IMG/VR virus record: IMGVR_UViG_3300045988_001841
DNA: 5,751 nt
Source of the DNA: a virus
Strand: one strand, 5' to 3'
In this document: piece by piece, positions 933-4,971 of the stretch
Position numbering within the stretch: position 1 is the first letter of the stretch
How the letters are laid out: the number at the start of each line of letters is the position of its first letter
Program-made: the position numbers and the translations under genes
Notes under the pieces: model-generated
What the model was told of the DNA's origin: nothing
Databases searched by the model: none
The model's input: the letters and a program-made list of their open reading frames with translations, nothing else

Positions 933-958
933 GCCCGGGCAAAACCCGGGCTATTTTT
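933..958 (+). terminator. Intrinsic-terminator-like hairpin between VP1 and VP2
   Basis: gcccggg (933-939) pairs with cccgggc (945-951), a 7-bp all-G/C stem with a 5-nt loop, followed by tattttt (952-958). It lies 12 nt after the VP1 stop. Confidence 0.6.
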
Positions 959-2834: not shown

Positions 2835-2844
2835 CGGTGTCACC

Positions 2845-2878
2845 TAGCCAAGTACCTATCAAGTAAGGTACTTGGCTA
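2845..2878 (+). terminator. Perfect 13-bp stem-loop just after the VP4 stop (transcript 3' end and/or ssDNA structural element)
   Basis: tagccaagtacct (2845-2857) pairs perfectly with aggtacttggcta (2866-2878) around an 8-nt loop. Only TT follows, so the U-tract is weak for a classical terminator. Confidence 0.5.
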
Positions 2879-2920
2879 TTGTCATATAAAAAAACCATGT
2901 ATCAGTCTATTCAGTGAATA

Positions 2921-2946
2921 AAAAAGGGCTGACCTAAAGTCAGCCC
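2921..2946 (-). terminator. Stem-loop with terminator geometry only on the minus strand
   Basis: gggctgac (2926-2933) pairs with gtcagccc (2939-2946) around a 5-nt loop. An A5 run (2921-2925) precedes it on the + strand, so on the - strand the stem is followed by TTTTT. No U-tract follows on the + strand. Confidence 0.35.
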
Positions 2947-2979
2947 CTTGCGTCGCGCCCCAATCTTGGGGCTGCCGCT

Positions 2980-3030
2980 GTGCGCACGCGCGCACGCGCG
3001 CGCAAACGCGCACGCGCGCACGCGCGCATG
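2980..3030. repeat. Alternating purine/pyrimidine tract of about 80% G+C containing an exact 20-nt direct repeat
   Basis: GCGCACGCGCGCACGCGCGC occurs at 2982-3001 and again at 3008-3027. Purine/pyrimidine alternation is perfect over 2980-3004 and over 3006-3030, broken only by the extra A within the AAA at 3004-3006. 41 of 51 bases are G or C. The tract has many GCGC/GCGCGC palindromes and GTGCGCAC at 2980-2987. Confidence 0.9.
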
Positions 3031-3048
3031 ATATTATATAACTTGTTG
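3029..3048 (+). other. AT-rich motif resembling the phiX174 origin nick region (candidate VP4 nick site / DNA unwinding element)
   Basis: tgATATTATATAACttgttg, compared with the phiX174 origin core CAACTTG^ATATTAATAAC as I recall it: TGATATTA is identical, then ATAAC follows after a 1-nt insertion. The phiX-like element AACTTG also occurs at 3040-3045 and 3149-3154. Confidence 0.3.
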
Positions 3049-3076
3049 TAGTCGTAGTAGTAGAGGTAGTGGAAAA

Positions 3077-3243
3077 GTTGAAAAGTACTAAAATTTAGCG
3101 CTAAGACGTAAATAAAAAGCAAAAAACAACGTTGAAAGTTTTGTTGAAAACTTGTTGAGATGTTGAAAGTTCGTCAAAATGACGAAAAGCATTGTGCAAC
3201 TTTATGTTGAAAACCTGTTGAAAGTGTTGAAAGTGTTGAAAAC
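3077..3243 (+). repeat. Iteron array: nine same-orientation copies of GTTGA(A/G)A (consensus tGTTGAAAr)
   Basis: Exact GTTGAAA starts at 3077, 3131, 3143, 3162, 3206, 3217, 3226 and 3235. The variant GTTGAGA starts at 3154. Cluster spacings are 12/11/8 nt and 11/9/9 nt. The two clusters flank the palindrome at 3170-3186. Confidence 0.9.
3170..3186. repeat. Perfect palindrome TTCGTCA-AAA-TGACGAA between the two iteron clusters
   Basis: ttcgtca (3170-3176) is the reverse complement of tgacgaa (3180-3186) with a 3-nt spacer. It could be a dimeric protein binding site or a small hairpin in ssDNA. Confidence 0.7.
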
Positions 3244-3333
3244 GCGCACAGCGCTAAAAAGGAATGGATTTAGCCGAATTCCGCTGCGCTCCATACGGCA
3301 AGGCGCTAAAGCGCCATTCAAACCAAAAAACAA

Positions 3334-3361
3334 TTGACAAGCGACAAAAAAATGATATAAT
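3334..3361 (+). promoter_or_regulatory. Consensus sigma70-type promoter with extended -10
   Basis: TTGACA (3334-3339), a 16-nt spacer, then TGaTATAAT (3353-3361). An A-rich UP-like tract (aaaccaaaaaacaa) lies just upstream. The predicted transcription start near 3368 is followed by the GAGGA ribosome binding site and the peptidase ATG at 3387. Confidence 0.75.
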
Positions 3362-3386
3362 CAAAACAGAAAGCGAGGAAACGGCC

Positions 3387-3779
3387 ATGAGCATTAAAAG
3401 CTACCTTGTAAATACTGACGGAAACGTAAAACTAGCAAGACACTTCAAAGTAAAAGAATTTGCTTGCAAAGACTTAAGTCCAGTAGTGTTCATAGATGAA
3501 TATCTATGGAACGTGCTGGACATCCTCCGGCATAAACTAAGAAAACCGGTAATAATCACCAGCGGATACAGAACACCAGAGTGGAACACAAAATGCGGCG
3601 GAGCAAAATACAGCTATCATATGCGCGGTATGGCAGCAGACATCCGAGTAAATGGAATGACACCAAAACAAGTAGCCAACATACTGGATGAAATTGTACC
3701 GGATGAATGCGGCATTATCGTATACAAAAGCTGGGTGCACTTTGACGTGCGCAAAAGCAAATACAGAAAAGGAATCTGA
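3387..3779 (+). CDS. Zinc peptidoglycan peptidase, M15 family (M15A/DUF882/Peptidase_M15_3-like), 130 aa; putative lysis or cell-wall-remodelling enzyme
   Basis: GAGGAA (3375-3380) lies 6 nt before ATG 3387. The motifs are FKVKEFACKD, SGYRTPEWN..GGA, and the zinc triad H-x6-D...H: SYHMRGMAAD (His codon 3618, Asp codon 3639) and WVHFD (His codon 3738). The longer ORF-track start at 3264 would place the consensus promoter inside the coding sequence and its SD abuts the ATG. Confidence 0.85.
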   Translation: MSIKSYLVNTDGNVKLARHFKVKEFACKDLSPVVFIDEYLWNVLDILRHKLRKPVIITSGYRTPEWNTKCGGAKYSYHMRGMAADIRVNGMTPKQVANILDEIVPDECGIIVYKSWVHFDVRKSKYRKGI

Positions 3780-4216: not shown

Positions 4217-4322
4217 AGCAATGAACGGCGCAAAAGACCGCCGTATGTTTAACGTAACCGCACGAAAAACCAAAACCATCAACCTTAGCCAGAAACCTAT
4301 GCGCGGTGGCATCCGGCTGTAA
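4200..4322 (+). CDS. Small highly basic DNA-binding/packaging peptide (phiX J-like, gokushovirus ORF8/VP8-like), 40 aa
   Basis: AAGGGAG (4186-4192) lies 7 nt before ATG 4200, and TAA is at 4320-4322. The translation is MGRHRKAMNGAKDRRMFNVTARKTKTINLSQKPMRGGIRL. It has about 11 Arg/Lys plus 1 His against a single acidic residue. As I recall, the C-terminal RGG(I/Y)RL is typical of the small basic gokushovirus protein. It overlaps the preceding ORF by 17 nt and is missing from the ORF track because of its size. Confidence 0.7.
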   Translation: MGRHRKAMNGAKDRRMFNVTARKTKTINLSQKPMRGGIRL

Positions 4323-4340: not shown

Positions 4341-4580
4341 ATGAAACATGAATATTTTGGTCTGTGGGACAGTGTAGCAAAGTGCTTTGCATGGGTAGGC
4401 GAGAGCAAGAACAGTGCAACCTTTGCACGTATGTGCAACGTAATGGCAAAGGATGAAAAAACGTTTGTTGGACAGGCACCGGGCGACTATACCGGCTTTA
4501 AACTGGCAGAGTTTAACGACGAGACCGGAACCTTTGAAAACTGCAAGGAAAAAGTATGGGAGGGCAAGCCGCATGAATAA
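4341..4580 (+). CDS. VP5: VP5-like conserved gokushovirus non-structural protein (79 aa)
   Basis: GGAG (4327-4330) lies 10 nt before ATG 4341. The segment PGDYTGFKLAEFNDETGTF matches the ..DYTLFELGEFDDETG.. signature I recall from gokushovirus ORF5/VP5 proteins. Its position just before VP3 is canonical. Confidence 0.7.
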   Translation: MKHEYFGLWDSVAKCFAWVGESKNSATFARMCNVMAKDEKTFVGQAPGDYTGFKLAEFNDETGTFENCKEKVWEGKPHE

Positions 4581-4590
4581 ACGATACGAA

Positions 4591-4614
4591 GAAGGGCGAA
4601 CGCCCTTCTTTTCT
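4591..4614 (+). terminator. Intrinsic-terminator-like hairpin between VP5 and VP3
   Basis: gaagggc (4591-4597) pairs with gcccttc (4602-4608) around the loop gaac, followed by ttttct (4609-4614). It starts 11 nt after the VP5 stop. Confidence 0.55.
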
Positions 4615-4629
4615 GCATCAGGAGAAAAA

Positions 4630-4971
4630 ATGCGAAAACAATACGTCTGGGCAAAAGACGAGAAAGGACAAGAAGTGCTGCAAGAAACGGCACCAATCGA
4701 CATCCAGCAAGAAATTGAAAGCTATGCGGACGAATGTGACATCAAAAGCATCGTCCGAAAAGCTAGTTTCGACCCGCAATTTATGAAAAGTCTGTCACAG
4801 GGAGCGTTGGACGGAACAGAAGTGGACATCACCGAATTTCCGCAAAACATCCATGAGTATCACCGCATGATTGCAACAGCACAAGCAAACGCCATGAAAC
4901 TTGAAGAACTGCAAAAAATGGCAGCAGCGGAACCTAAAGCAGAACCTAAAGCAAAGGAGGGAGAAGAGTGA
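4630..4971 (+). CDS. VP3: Internal scaffolding protein VP3 (113 aa from ATG 4630; an alternative start at ATG 4573 gives 132 aa)
   Basis: AGGAG (4620-4624) lies 5 nt before ATG 4630. The motif ..YADECDIKSIVRK.. matches the conserved VP3 block (F.DECDIN.I), about 35 residues from this start as in known VP3 proteins. The tail is acidic and Lys-rich. The stop TGA (4969-4971) overlaps the VP1 GTG. ATG 4573 also has an SD (GGGAGGG 4558-4564) and overlaps the VP5 stop, so the start is ambiguous. The ORF-track start at 4453 lies inside VP5 in another frame and is rejected. Confidence 0.8.
   Translation: MRKQYVWAKDEKGQEVLQETAPIDIQQEIESYADECDIKSIVRKASFDPQFMKSLSQGALDGTEVDITEFPQNIHEYHRMIATAQANAMKLEELQKMAAAEPKAEPKAKEGEE

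Follow-up and report, generated by a model that had tools for sequence, protein, structure and literature searches.

A probable composite replication and control region with an oriC-like DnaA module in a gokushovirus genome

In the genome of a gut gokushovirus, the ~550-nt interval between VP4 and the peptidase gene (positions 2835-3386) probably serves both replication and control and is composed of three working parts: a hairpin, a DnaA module and a promoter. This reading, drawn from sequence, builds on the identity of the sequence elements, their fixed internal spacing, their conservation, the freedom of the module in orientation and position, and its match to a real dnaA-dnaN origin. To our knowledge, no replication origin has so far been defined for gokushoviruses. 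We found no prior description of such a region in the literature, none joining Microviridae with a DnaA box, and nothing relevant on gokushovirus origins, on the motifs or on Microviridae stem-loop origins.

The window, the whole 5751-nt stretch of DNA that was analysed (IMGVR_UViG_3300045988_001841), is a circular gokushovirus genome of 5696 nt with a 55-nt terminal repeat. All genes of this microvirus lie on the plus strand: VP1, which wraps around the genome ends and runs to 921, VP2 (961-1818), VP4 (1815-2834), an M15 peptidase (3387-3779), VP5 (4341-4580) and VP3 (4453-4971). The peptidase start at 3387, which an earlier sequence-only reading had assumed, is borne out: most of the >1000 homologue clusters are 129-130 aa long, the Pfam domain starts downstream of this position, and GAGGA lies 7 nt upstream of it. 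The gene-free interval described by that reading is real. There is no conserved ORF in 2835-3386, conservation is on par with that of the genes, and none of the small ORFs amounts to a conserved gene among the close relatives compared. Two of these ORFs (3179-3337 on the plus strand, 3088-3192 on the minus strand) stay open in most close relatives (49 and 65 of 76); in other relatives the start codon is lost or the frame is cut by an inversion boundary. The conservation has no 3-base (codon) periodicity.

Upon alignment of the VP4-to-next-gene interval in relatives, per-column identity was 80-99% over 2835-2920 and 2982-3330. The length of the interval in 79 relatives was mostly 377-1049 nt, with outliers of 81, 2436 and 3717 nt. 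The region was found in 55 GenBank phage records, all except three of them Microviridae, and in every IMG/VR relative fetched. It is present in 79 IMG/VR and GenBank relatives and was seen in every relative examined; it is not an assembly artefact such as a chimera. The sequence-only reading had taken the interval for a replication or control region and not filler, listing hairpins, a GC tract, an AT-rich motif, a GTA/TAG repeat, iterons, a palindrome and a promoter. Each of these is found where it had been placed, and this general view is upheld, with a real promoter at the end of the region; several of the elements are better read otherwise.

The centre of the region is a portable module of 212 nt (3032-3243) that holds AT-rich DNA, trios and all boxes, and that is inverted or moved as a unit in relatives. 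At its left end is an AT-rich stretch (3029-3042), a candidate DNA unwinding element. The 14 nt preceding TTGTTG are 71-93% A+T in 93 relatives, and the position of this stretch relative to trios and boxes is as in a Ruminococcus dnaA-dnaN origin. The motif AACTTGTTG (3040-3048), kept with at most one mismatch in 93 of 96 modules, is not in the host-type (Ruminococcus) origin and resembles the hairpin loops TACTTGTT of SpV4 and phiMH2K. It is followed on the plus strand by a DnaA-trio-like repeat with its spacer (3049-3067), assigned by the register in relatives and by published criteria: the trios TAG TCG TAG TAG TAG occupy 3049-3063 (3'-GAT-5' read from the boxes), the 4-nt spacer AGGT occupies 3064-3067, and the TAG-rich repeat spans 3049-3072. 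At least three consecutive NAN trios are present in 91 of 93 relatives and five in 53 of 93; in 85 of 93 the distance between box 1 and the first TAG is 19 nt. What had been described as a GTA microrepeat and an AT-rich motif thus appears instead as DnaA-trios (TAG repeats) and a candidate unwinding element.

Adjoining the trios is a proximal pair of putative DnaA boxes on the minus strand (3068-3084), recognised by match to the box family and by fixed offset. Box 1 is AGTGGAAAA (3068-3076; reverse complement TTTTCCACT) and box 2 is AGTTGAAAA (3076-3084; reverse complement TTTTCAACT). The two overlap by one base, and this 8-nt offset is kept in 85 of 93 relatives, where box 1 is commonly TGTGGAAAA (36 relatives; TTTTCCACA on the minus strand) or AGTGGAAAA (30). 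Farther right is a distal array of DnaA-box-like 9-mers (3130-3242), all in one orientation on the minus strand, for which counts, relatives and the Ruminococcus origin provide the evidence. The 9-mers start at 3130, 3142, 3153, 3161, 3205, 3216, 3225 and 3234 (TGTTGAAAA/G, reverse complement TTTTCAACA), and a small conserved hairpin, TTCGTCAAAATGACGAA (3170-3186), sits between them. GTTGAAA occurs eight times, always on the plus strand within 3077-3241 and nowhere else in the genome, against 1.06 occurrences expected; 0 of 200 shuffles reach eight. Boxes with at most one mismatch number eight in 175 nt versus three in the other 5.5 kb. The count of nine iterons in the sequence-only reading is fair, since two degenerate copies start at 3130 and 3153 besides the eight GTTGAAA, but instead of iterons serving VP4 the repeats appear to be 9-mers of the DnaA-box family. 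At the corresponding places of the module, divergent relatives (compared by eye, without alignment) have TGTTGAAAA, TGTGGAAAA or TGTGGATAA, the last being the perfect consensus.

A similar arrangement is found at a bacterial chromosome origin. Bacterial genomes were scanned for three tandem iterons with the pattern GTTGAAANNGTTGAAANNGTTGAAA, which is too permissive: among the 120 loci listed, 118 were irrelevant tandem repeats and two were real arrays, both in Ruminococcus MAGs. In one of these (L172), the order is yidC-yidD-rnpA-dnaA, then ~30 TTTTCAACA/TTTTCCACA boxes, then dnaN. The box array ends with TTTTCCACAGTTTCAACA-CCCC-CTACTACTACTACTA-TATTTATTTACGTTTTTTTT; the order on the minus strand of the window is TTTTCAACTTTTCCACT-ACCT-CTACTACTACGACTA-CAACAAG-TTATATAATATCA. 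Around 4889-4917 the L172 origin also has the same 9-nt-spaced box triple as the distal array of the microvirus. Of the 96 modules in relatives, 93 retain this arrangement of box pair, spacer, trios and AT-rich DNA. Three relatives (L039, L046 and L057) are without the AT-rich, trio and box-pair part and retain the distal boxes, which suggests that unwinding may be dispensable and that the boxes may have a separate function.

The published scheme of the basal unwinding system (BUS) calls for a box with at most two mismatches to TTATCCACA or to the species-specific box; a second box, with up to four mismatches, is optional and lies no more than 3 bp away. Box and first trio are 0-16 bp apart (13 being commonest, counted from the distal box), the NAN trios (consensus 3'-GAT-5') number three or more in a row on the correct strand relative to the box, and an AT-rich element is distal to them (Pelliciari et al. 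2021, PMC8287927). In the module, box 1 (TTTTCCACT) has two mismatches to TTATCCACA, and the TTTTCCACA of 36 relatives has one. TTTTCAACT qualifies as the second box; the sharing of one base between boxes is absent from the published scheme. The spacer is 4 nt long if counted from box 1, or 12 nt if counted from box 2, and the trios then run TAG TAG TAG, TCG and TAG, with the same strand relation as in the L172 origin. The AT-rich element is a stretch of ~14 nt, short against the 27-mer of B. subtilis. We conclude that box pair, 4-nt spacer, trios and AT-rich DNA conform to the published sequence criteria for a basal unwinding system.

Like the BUS of B. subtilis incC, with its DnaA-boxes 6/7, trios and AT-rich DNA (PMC6669920, PMC8287927), the module has a same-orientation box pair, a short spacer, at least three trios, an AT-rich element and more distal boxes upstream, in the relative orientation of the Ruminococcus dnaA-dnaN origin. 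Unlike the BUS, it is carried by a 5.7-kb ssDNA phage genome and does not stand beside dnaA, its box variant is TTTTCAACA, its proximal boxes overlap by 1 nt, its AT-rich element is just ~14 nt, AACTTGTTG is inserted between AT-rich DNA and trios, and its flanks are an alternating GC tract and palindromes. Located in a microvirus, between the VP4 and peptidase genes, the module is oriC-like and not a chromosomal oriC proper. Position 6 of the variant TTTTCAACA does not fit TTWTNCACA; that the variant abounds in one dnaA-dnaN intergenic region and is interchanged with canonical boxes suggests that it is a DnaA box.

DnaA-assisted origins of plasmids and phages include those of pSC101, P1 oriR, F and RK2 and the R6K 'A site' ABC primosome; these origins depend on their own Rep and 17-22-bp iterons, with one to a few helper DnaA boxes. 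The microvirus resembles them as a mobile replicon in which host DnaA boxes adjoin an AT-rich region. Unlike them, it is without such a Rep or long iterons and has a chromosomal layout with trios: its repeats are 9-mers, and no RepA/Pi-type initiator is found among its ORFs. A comparison of the region with 72,556 plasmids gave no similarity.

Neither the orientation nor the genome position of the module is fixed: both orientations and two positions are found. Among 77 aligned close relatives, 6 have it inverted in place, as do several GenBank genomes, and in four other genomes it lies downstream of VP2; inverted and relocated modules keep all internal features. A strand-specific Rep nick site could not tolerate inversion or relocation, so a mechanism of iterons serving VP4 does not fit. 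Instead, both orientations and two positions indicate that the module most likely acts on the double-stranded replicative form via host DnaA. GC-rich inverted repeats flank the inverted segment, and no recombinase gene is present. The inverted copies are 76-81% identical to that of the window and the flanks 84-95%, a difference that points to old inversions, not active switching. Box clusters are confined to this clade, whose genomes are mostly at least 5 kb; none were found in Chp2, phiMH2K, SpV4 or ~70 small microviruses.

The first hairpin (2836-2878, minus strand), which the sequence-only reading had listed as a mere stem-loop, is the element that resembles an origin for VP4. It consists of a flank GGTGTCACC (2836-2844), a 13-bp stem (2845-2857 with 2866-2878) and a loop ATCAAGTA (2858-2865), and its DNA fold over 2845-2878 has a z of -7.4. 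The flank and the invariant loop recur in distant Microviridae with differing stems. Compensatory changes are present in 10 of 12 stem pairs, with a covariation of 0.533 versus 0.132 in shuffles (0/500), computed on trimmed arms, as loop lengths differ between relatives. The description of the whole interval as structured holds for this hairpin, in both fold and covariation, but not for the 212-nt core, whose ssDNA fold is not significant (z -0.7 and -1.8), or for 3243-3330, where covariation is absent.

The minus strand of the hairpin reads CCTTACTTG/ATAGGTACTTGGCTAGGTGACACC and resembles the phiX174 origin CAACTTG/ATATTAATAACACTATAGACCAC, checked in NC_001422 (slashes mark the nick position). 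The phiX174 viral-strand origin is 30 bp long and is nicked by gene A protein at G4305/A4306; the minus strand of 2836-2866 shares ACTTGATA with it at this position, and CTA..CAC is common to both after an equal 12-nt interval. The nick motif ACTTG/AT and the downstream recognition sequence are both present, CCTTACTTGATAGGTACTTGGCTAGGTGACACC on the minus strand matching phiX174 CAACTTGATATTAATAACACTATAGACCAC at 16/30 positions ungapped. VP4 carries an HUH motif and YVAGYVTKK and falls in the Pfam family REP_ORF2-G2P. Its RPHYHMIL and YVAGYVTKK align with RLHFHAVH and YVAKYVNKK of phiX174 protein A, so HUH and YVAxYVxKK motifs, including two catalytic tyrosines, are common to both proteins. We infer that the hairpin at 2845-2878 is most likely the site recognised and nicked by the HUH initiator VP4 for rolling-circle replication.

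There are two differences from phiX174. In this genome a 13-bp covarying intergenic hairpin carries the motif in its loop, whereas the phiX174 motif is inside the initiator gene. In addition, the motif lies antisense to the genes in every clade member with a detected hairpin. Chp2, which has the same hairpin, and 65 small microviruses carry it on the sense strand. The antisense placement is awkward for a simple plus-strand-origin reading. One tentative reading, which we consider rather unlikely, is that the rolling-circle origin of the clade has been turned round: with the nick motif on the strand complementary to all genes, virions would carry the antisense strand, making this a negative-sense microvirus whose DnaA origin would sustain a VP4-independent, host-controlled episome. 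AT skew was rejected as a marker of the packaged strand: it is +0.29 in phiMH2K despite a sense-strand (looser) hairpin candidate, and ranges from -0.32 to +0.26 in small microviruses. The spectrum of rare variants is ambiguous: on the sense strand, third codon positions (C>T 47/89 versus G>A 17/70) mildly favour ordinary polarity, and over all positions both rates are near equal.

Between hairpin and module lies a conserved block, CCATGTATCAGTCTATTCAGT (2895-2916; 80-90% column identity), lengthened in most relatives into a direct repeat of two TCAGTCTAT. The sequence-only reading had named three stem-loops. All are present here, but the two within 2923-2975 are variable in sequence or absent in 70-80% of relatives; that at 2926-2946 has a z of -5.8, and its minus strand (2949-2923) reads terminator-like with a T run, and that at 2955-2975 has a z of -3.3. 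The alternating purine-pyrimidine GC tract, (GCGCACGC)n (2979-3028; period 8, 5.6 copies), is an imperfect palindrome around CAAA and borders the module on its AT-rich side. Shuffled sequences fold into a hairpin just as well as the tract. Of 77 relatives, 73 have an alternating run of 20 nt or more, and one relative (L017) is without the GC tract. The tract may serve as a boundary or as a supercoil-absorbing (Z-DNA or cruciform) element.

To the right of the module, an element with short palindromes (3243-3330) has 90-99% column identity in the near clade; it is not in divergent relatives, whose modules end differently. Its palindromes, AGCGCT (3249-3254) and GGCGCTAAAGCGCC (3302-3315), to which TTTAGCGCTAAG (3094-3105) is related, are short and invariant, and those upstream of the promoter are possible protein-binding (operator-like) sites. 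The promoter, on the plus strand at 3334-3361, matches sigma-70 TTGACA-16-TATAAT at 12/12 positions and has a TG extension; GAGGA (3375-3379) and the ATG of the peptidase (3387) come after it. A match of at least 10/12 lies within the interval in 70 of 77 relatives, in 57 of them with TG.

We propose that the three parts would work as follows. The stem-loop just past the VP4 stop codon would be nicked by VP4 for rolling-circle replication. The second part, 3032-3243, would be a self-contained, orientation-independent module copying the basal unwinding system of a Firmicute chromosome origin, with ~ten boxes of the DnaA-box variant that the host uses (TTTTCAACA/TTTTCCAC-) and, next to the final box pair, the 4-nt spacer, the DnaA-trios (3'-GAT-5') and the AT-rich unwinding element. 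With the replicative form double-stranded, the boxes would be occupied by host DnaA-ATP, which, by the B. subtilis mechanism, would spread from the proximal box pair to the trio strand and melt the AT-rich DNA; the most likely consequence would be loading of host helicase and primase on the opened DNA. The outcome may be a host-driven, VP4-independent start or amplification of duplex replication, or episomal persistence, and as a side effect many replicative-form copies may soak up host DnaA. The third part, an extended -10 consensus promoter, would drive the peptidase (lysis) gene block, with the upstream palindromes as possible operators. We infer DnaA binding, unwinding, helicase loading and nicking from sequence, as well as a need of a rolling-circle phage for DnaA-dependent opening.

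The boxes might instead form a sink or a DnaA-responsive switch, titrating DnaA or coupling the lysis promoter to DnaA status with no unwinding; this is possible, and we think it unlikely. In B. subtilis, multicopy plasmids that carry clusters of DnaA boxes (inc regions) have an inhibitory effect on initiation, and E. coli has a DnaA-titrating locus, datA. The module is likewise a dense DnaA-box cluster outside oriC, its boxes are 90-260 nt upstream of the consensus promoter, its freedom of orientation suits a cluster of binding sites, and the three relatives noted above keep boxes without the AT-rich and trio part. However, such titrating loci are without a trio and AT-rich unwinding unit, and here trios, 4-nt spacer, 19-nt register and AT-rich DNA are kept in 93/96 modules and travel with the boxes. 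A sink or operator has no need of trios and AT-rich DNA, and their retention therefore counts against a pure sink. The modules downstream of VP2, moreover, do not adjoin the lysis-gene promoter.

The sequence-only reading had itself favoured an origin of the plasmid or CRESS type, with the iterons as binding sites for VP4 and the AT-rich motif beside a GC clamp as its nick site. The order of GC tract, AT-rich DNA, repeats and promoter suits this idea, as do the resemblance of TGATATTATATAAC in the window to phiX174 TGATATTAATAAC and the retention of AACTTGTTG in nearly all modules, but we now regard it as improbable. The block is inverted or relocated in >10 relatives in which genes and hairpin keep a constant orientation, and the repeats equal host DnaA boxes. 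The TGATATT similarity is missing in most relatives, and the phiX-like nick reading of TGATATTATATAAC was rejected because it is not conserved; the phiX-like motif with a covarying stem is at 2836-2878 instead. Small microviruses with VP4 homologues have the hairpin and no iterons. As in CRESS, geminivirus and circovirus origins, a stem-loop (2845-2878) bears a candidate Rep nick site in its loop. Unlike in those origins, no fixed-orientation, Rep-specific iterons flank it: the host-type DnaA boxes are ~190-200 nt away, orientation-free, and invert or move independently of the hairpin.

It is very improbable that the module is a captured homology patch for recombination or integration at host oriC, with no replication role. 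In one contig (L340), 487 nt of microvirus DNA (the 3' end of VP4, hairpin and module, 97% identical to L374) are fused to a box cluster upstream of dnaA-dnaN-recF-gyrB-gyrA. However, this is a single contig whose junction lies inside the repeated DnaA boxes, as is typical of assembly chimeras, its first 54 nt match no phage, and its bacterium has 35% GC versus 60% for the CRISPR-linked host; strong purifying selection on trios and spacing would also be left unexplained. We give least credence to a gene for a non-coding RNA or to unrecognised genes for small proteins, for which the high nucleotide conservation of unannotated DNA, the two ORFs open in most close relatives and the terminator-like minus-strand hairpin might speak, since a permissive Rfam search of both strands gave sub-threshold miRNA/snoRNA noise on the GC tract only, the module fold is not significant on either strand, the right-hand element lacks covariation, the terminator-like hairpin is missing from most relatives, and the ORFs lose their starts or are cut by inversion boundaries without codon periodicity.

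The preferred reading of a composite region with a DnaA module bears on the host. Spacers in a type I-C CRISPR array with the repeat GTCGCCCTCCTCGC(A/G)GAGGGCGTGGATAGAAAT tie the clade to a gut bacterium of high GC content (~60%). The GC content of the Ruminococcus MAG whose origin matches is 36%, and this difference counts against the preferred reading. Box variant and CRISPR spacers are handles on the host.

Gokushoviruses are the dominant ssDNA phages of the gut and persist for years in individuals. The region offers two candidate gokushovirus origins, a family-wide hairpin that is probably the target of VP4 and a DnaA module. If the module is active, a 5.7-kb rolling-circle phage would also recruit the host's own initiation machinery. 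This could explain duplex amplification or maintenance without integration, host replication shutdown, and why genomes of the clade are ~1 kb larger than those of other microviruses. The module may also serve as a small natural system in which to test the DnaA-box/trio model outside the chromosome.

The window represents a gokushovirus genome, circular and complete at 5696 nt, plus a terminal redundancy of 55 nt. All genes are carried on the + strand: VP1 (Phage_F), running across the ends to its stop at 921; VP2 (961-1818); VP4 (1815-2834; Pfam REP_ORF2-G2P); an M15_3 peptidase (3387-3779); an ORF of 75 aa listed between the peptidase and VP5; VP5 (4341-4580); and VP3 (4453-4971). The sole long stretch without genes is 2835-3386, and its right-hand limit, the peptidase start at 3387, is supported because homologues are mostly 129-130 aa long. 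A clean intrinsic terminator follows VP1 at 933-951 (+), reading GCCCGGGCAAAACCCGGGC then T's; 18 of 20 terminator-like matches lie on the minus strand, an excess probably explained by the richness of the antisense strand in T.

The sequence-only reading described 2835-3386 as a structured control region with no credible ORF, and the features it named are all there. The small ORFs of the interval are not kept as genes in relatives. The three stem-loops are present (DNA-fold z-scores of -7.4, -5.8 and -3.3), as are an alternating GC tract (8-nt period), AT-rich DNA with a TAG-rich microrepeat behind it, a palindrome (GGCGCTAAAGCGCC) and a consensus promoter, a 12/12 sigma-70 match with TG extension at 3334-3361. 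What had been counted as nine iterons are eight exact GTTGAAA and two degenerate copies; the exact copies all lie on the + strand in 3077-3241, with none elsewhere in the genome, against 1.06 expected (eight copies in 0 of 200 shuffles). By blastn, the region has matches in 55 phage records of GenBank, of which three are not Microviridae; most of the matches listed bear no annotation, and a few fall under 'hypothetical protein' features. Among 80 IMG/VR relatives fetched (VP4 90-97% identical), every one with a complete interval carries the region, and it is no assembly artefact. Interval lengths are mostly 377-1049 nt, with outliers of 81, 2436 and 3717 nt. When 77 sequences are aligned, identity per column is 80-99% over both 2835-2920 and 2982-3330, at or above that of the genes, and shows no codon periodicity; 2925-2981, which holds the second and third hairpins (2926-2946 and 2955-2975), is variable or absent in 70-80% of relatives. 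Longer VP4-to-peptidase intervals (e.g. in relatives L025, L029, L030 and L037) hold extra small ORFs that follow their own strong TTGAAA/TTGACA-17-TGnTATAAT promoters; this spot is a gene-gain hotspot.

A clue to what the repeats are came from scanning bacterial genomes for three iterons in tandem. The returns were mostly noise, and large iteron arrays occurred in just 2 among the 120 loci listed, both Ruminococcus MAGs. Locus L138 interleaves the iteron with TGTGGAAAA; the reverse complement of the latter, TTTTCCACA, is a canonical DnaA box. In locus L172 the gene order (Pfam) is yidC-yidD-rnpA-dnaA, about 30 TTTTCAACA/TTTTCCACA boxes, and dnaN, an arrangement that is a Firmicute-type oriC. 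Its array ends with the elements of a basal unwinding system (PMC6669920, PMC8287927): the box pair TTTTCCACA G TTTCAACA, the GC spacer CCCC, the DnaA-trios CTA CTA CTA CTA CTA and the AT-rich element TATTTATTTACGTTTTTTTT. On its minus strand, from 3084 to 3029, the window reads TTTTCAACT TTTCCACT, ACCT, CTA CTA CTA CGA CTA, CAACAAG and TTATATAATATCA. By this agreement in layout, the iterons correspond to DnaA boxes and the GTA microrepeat to DnaA-trios, and what had been called an AT-rich origin-like motif corresponds to an unwinding element. The putative module at 3032-3243 has all the sequence features of the published unwinding system.

The identification gains support from three more findings. 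The layout is conserved in 93 of 96 extracted modules, with three to six TAG copies. Box 1, the trio-proximal box, lies 19 nt from the first TAG in 85 of the 93 and reads TGTGGAAAA in 36 and AGTGGAAAA in 30; box 2 is offset from it by 8 nt in 85 of 93, and the 14 nt upstream are 71-93% A+T. In divergent relatives the equivalent places of the module are occupied by TGTTGAAAA, TGTGGAAAA or the perfect consensus TGTGGATAA, as judged by eye in unaligned sequences. Box clusters are confined to the window's clade, gut genomes mostly of 5 kb or larger, and were not found in Chp2, phiMH2K, SpV4 or about 70 small microviruses. The main rival reading is that the module is a pure DnaA sink or regulatory site. 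In its favor, three relatives (L039, L046 and L057) keep the distal box array and lack the AT-rich, trio and proximal box-pair part; however, the strict conservation of trios, spacer and register speaks against it.

The module also behaves as a portable unit. Six of the 77 close relatives in the alignment have precisely 3032-3243 inverted at its usual place, between two flanks of unchanged orientation. Inverted modules are found downstream of VP4 in MG945447, KT264800, MG945388 and MG945867, and downstream of VP2 in KT264784, KX513876, KX513864 and MT121961 (all GenBank), and the internal features always move as one. Inverted copies are 76-81% identical while flanks are 84-95% identical, so these are old rearrangements, not an active switch. 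Neither strand of the module shows a significant ssDNA fold, and Rfam has no match to the block. Together, these properties argue for a unit acting on double-stranded DNA and against a strand-specific nick site within it. The VP4-iteron origin model is thus unsupported, since the repeats match DnaA boxes and the block inverts and relocates.

Two further elements adjoin these parts. Between the AT-rich DNA and the trios, 93 of 96 modules retain AACTTGTTG (3040-3048), which the host origin lacks. It is similar to the hairpin loops TACTTGTT found in SpV4 (524) and phiMH2K (3313) and to the phiX174 motif AACTTG; DnaA-driven melting could expose it to VP4 as a second recognition site. Many relatives have a ~38-nt insertion (..GCGCTATTGTTCGCAAGCTCACAAGCGCCG..) between the GC tract and the AT-rich stretch (window 3027-3029 in the alignment), creating TTGTTC-18-TATAAT directed into the module, a possible promoter transcribing across the unwinding element.

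A VP4 origin is better sought in the first hairpin (2836-2878). Blastn with 2826-2920 reaches microviruses far outside the clade, from honeybee, Ciona, blackfly, robin and methane-seep sediment, which share GGTGTCACCTAG and the loop ATCAAGTA and differ in stem sequence. Across 52 distinct sequences, compensatory changes are seen at 10 of the 12 stem pairs, and 82.7% of cells are paired versus 58% in shuffles. The covariation score is 0.533 versus 0.132 in shuffles (0/500) and at most 0.10 in slid controls, with flank and loop fixed by the search pattern and the right-arm start picked within 0-3 nt for maximal pairing. Within the close clade, pair 2850/2873 alternates between A-T and C-G, a compensatory change on many different backgrounds. 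Taken from the other strand, the sequence of loop and 3' arm is ..TACTTG|ATAGGTACTTGGCTAGGTGACACC, compared with CAACTTG|ATATTAATAACACTATAGACCAC, nicked at 4305/4306, in the phiX174 origin (verified in NC_001422). Both share ACTTGATA, then CTA..CAC after an equal 12-nt interval, and VP4 and phiX174 protein A align in the HUH motif and in YVAGYVTKK/YVAKYVNKK. The covarying stem, the phiX-like motif and the protein likeness make the first hairpin the best candidate for the VP4 origin.

The TACTTGAT loop lies on the gene-sense strand in 65 small microviruses and Chp2 (a Chlamydia phage), versus the antisense strand in all window-clade members with a detected hairpin (comparison of window 2836-2878 and loci L217-L221, L222-L324 and L326). 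An exception is L313, a small genome (4559 nt, VP1 37% identical) with the clade's orientation. The sense-strand A excess is extreme in the clade (A 37%, T 18%, and 67% A at four-fold sites, with A the majority base at 93 of 139 of them in the VP1, VP2, VP4 and peptidase alignments). This skew is not diagnostic of the packaged strand, because phiMH2K has +0.29. Rare third-position variants on the sense strand are more often C>T (47/89) than G>A (17/70), a spectrum that leans away from antisense-strand packaging, a possibility raised by the hairpin's orientation. Rare variants mostly leave A (118 events out, 15 in), suggesting selection rather than mutation as the force that keeps the coding strand rich in A.

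The remaining elements flank the module. Of 77 close relatives, 73 retain the GC tract (L017 is without it). The tract folds no better than shuffles; we read it, speculatively, as a boundary or supercoil-responsive element. The 3243-3330 segment, conserved solely in the near clade, contains invariant short palindromes, shows no covariation, and possibly provides operator sites for the promoter just downstream. A sigma-70 promoter of at least 10/12 occurs in 70 of 77 relatives, 57 with TG. In relative L008, the right-hand conserved element and the promoter -35 region are tandemly duplicated (interval ~425-600).

Clues to the host came from scanning metagenomes for the AT-rich/trio motif, which returned mostly 5.5-6 kb gut contigs and also two type I-C-like CRISPR arrays, L373 (ULRC01059803.1; 78 repeats, with type I-C cas genes alongside) and L377 (ULTV01001374.1; 70 repeats), on contigs of GC 0.59-0.62, i.e. 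from a roughly 60% GC gut bacterium. Of their 144 spacers, 44 match the locus set, mostly genomes of the window's clade and some at 100%; about 7 of the 44 match only L444, apparently the array in a third copy. The AT-rich/trio segment itself is the target of one spacer, which matches >200 loci; the window agrees with it at 27 of 34 nt (3037-3063). In L340 (UESJ01001071.1), a 487-nt microvirus fragment (55-541) comprising the VP4 3' end, a hairpin variant and the DnaA module adjoins a DnaA-box cluster upstream of dnaA; the bacterial part (787-9580; dnaA-dnaN-recF-gyrB-gyrA) is from a 35% GC bacterium. L340 may reflect chimeric assembly at the boxes common to both, or genuine recombination.

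In the best-supported mechanism, host DnaA would bind the box array on the replicative form, spread from the proximal box pair onto the trios and open the AT-rich DNA, with DnaA titration as a by-product. The most likely consequence is that host helicase and primase would be loaded on the opened DNA, so that duplex replication could start or be amplified independently of VP4, or the genome persist as an episome. Among the papers searched, none mentions 'Microviridae' together with 'DnaA box' or describes the hairpin motif, and the 47 GenBank records matching the module annotate it with nothing more than a few 'hypothetical protein' features. Both DnaA-dependent and phiX-type origins are known kinds; what appears to be new, judged from sequence, is a chromosome-type box/trio unwinding unit on a rolling-circle ssDNA phage, together with a phiX-like origin hairpin inverted relative to the genes.
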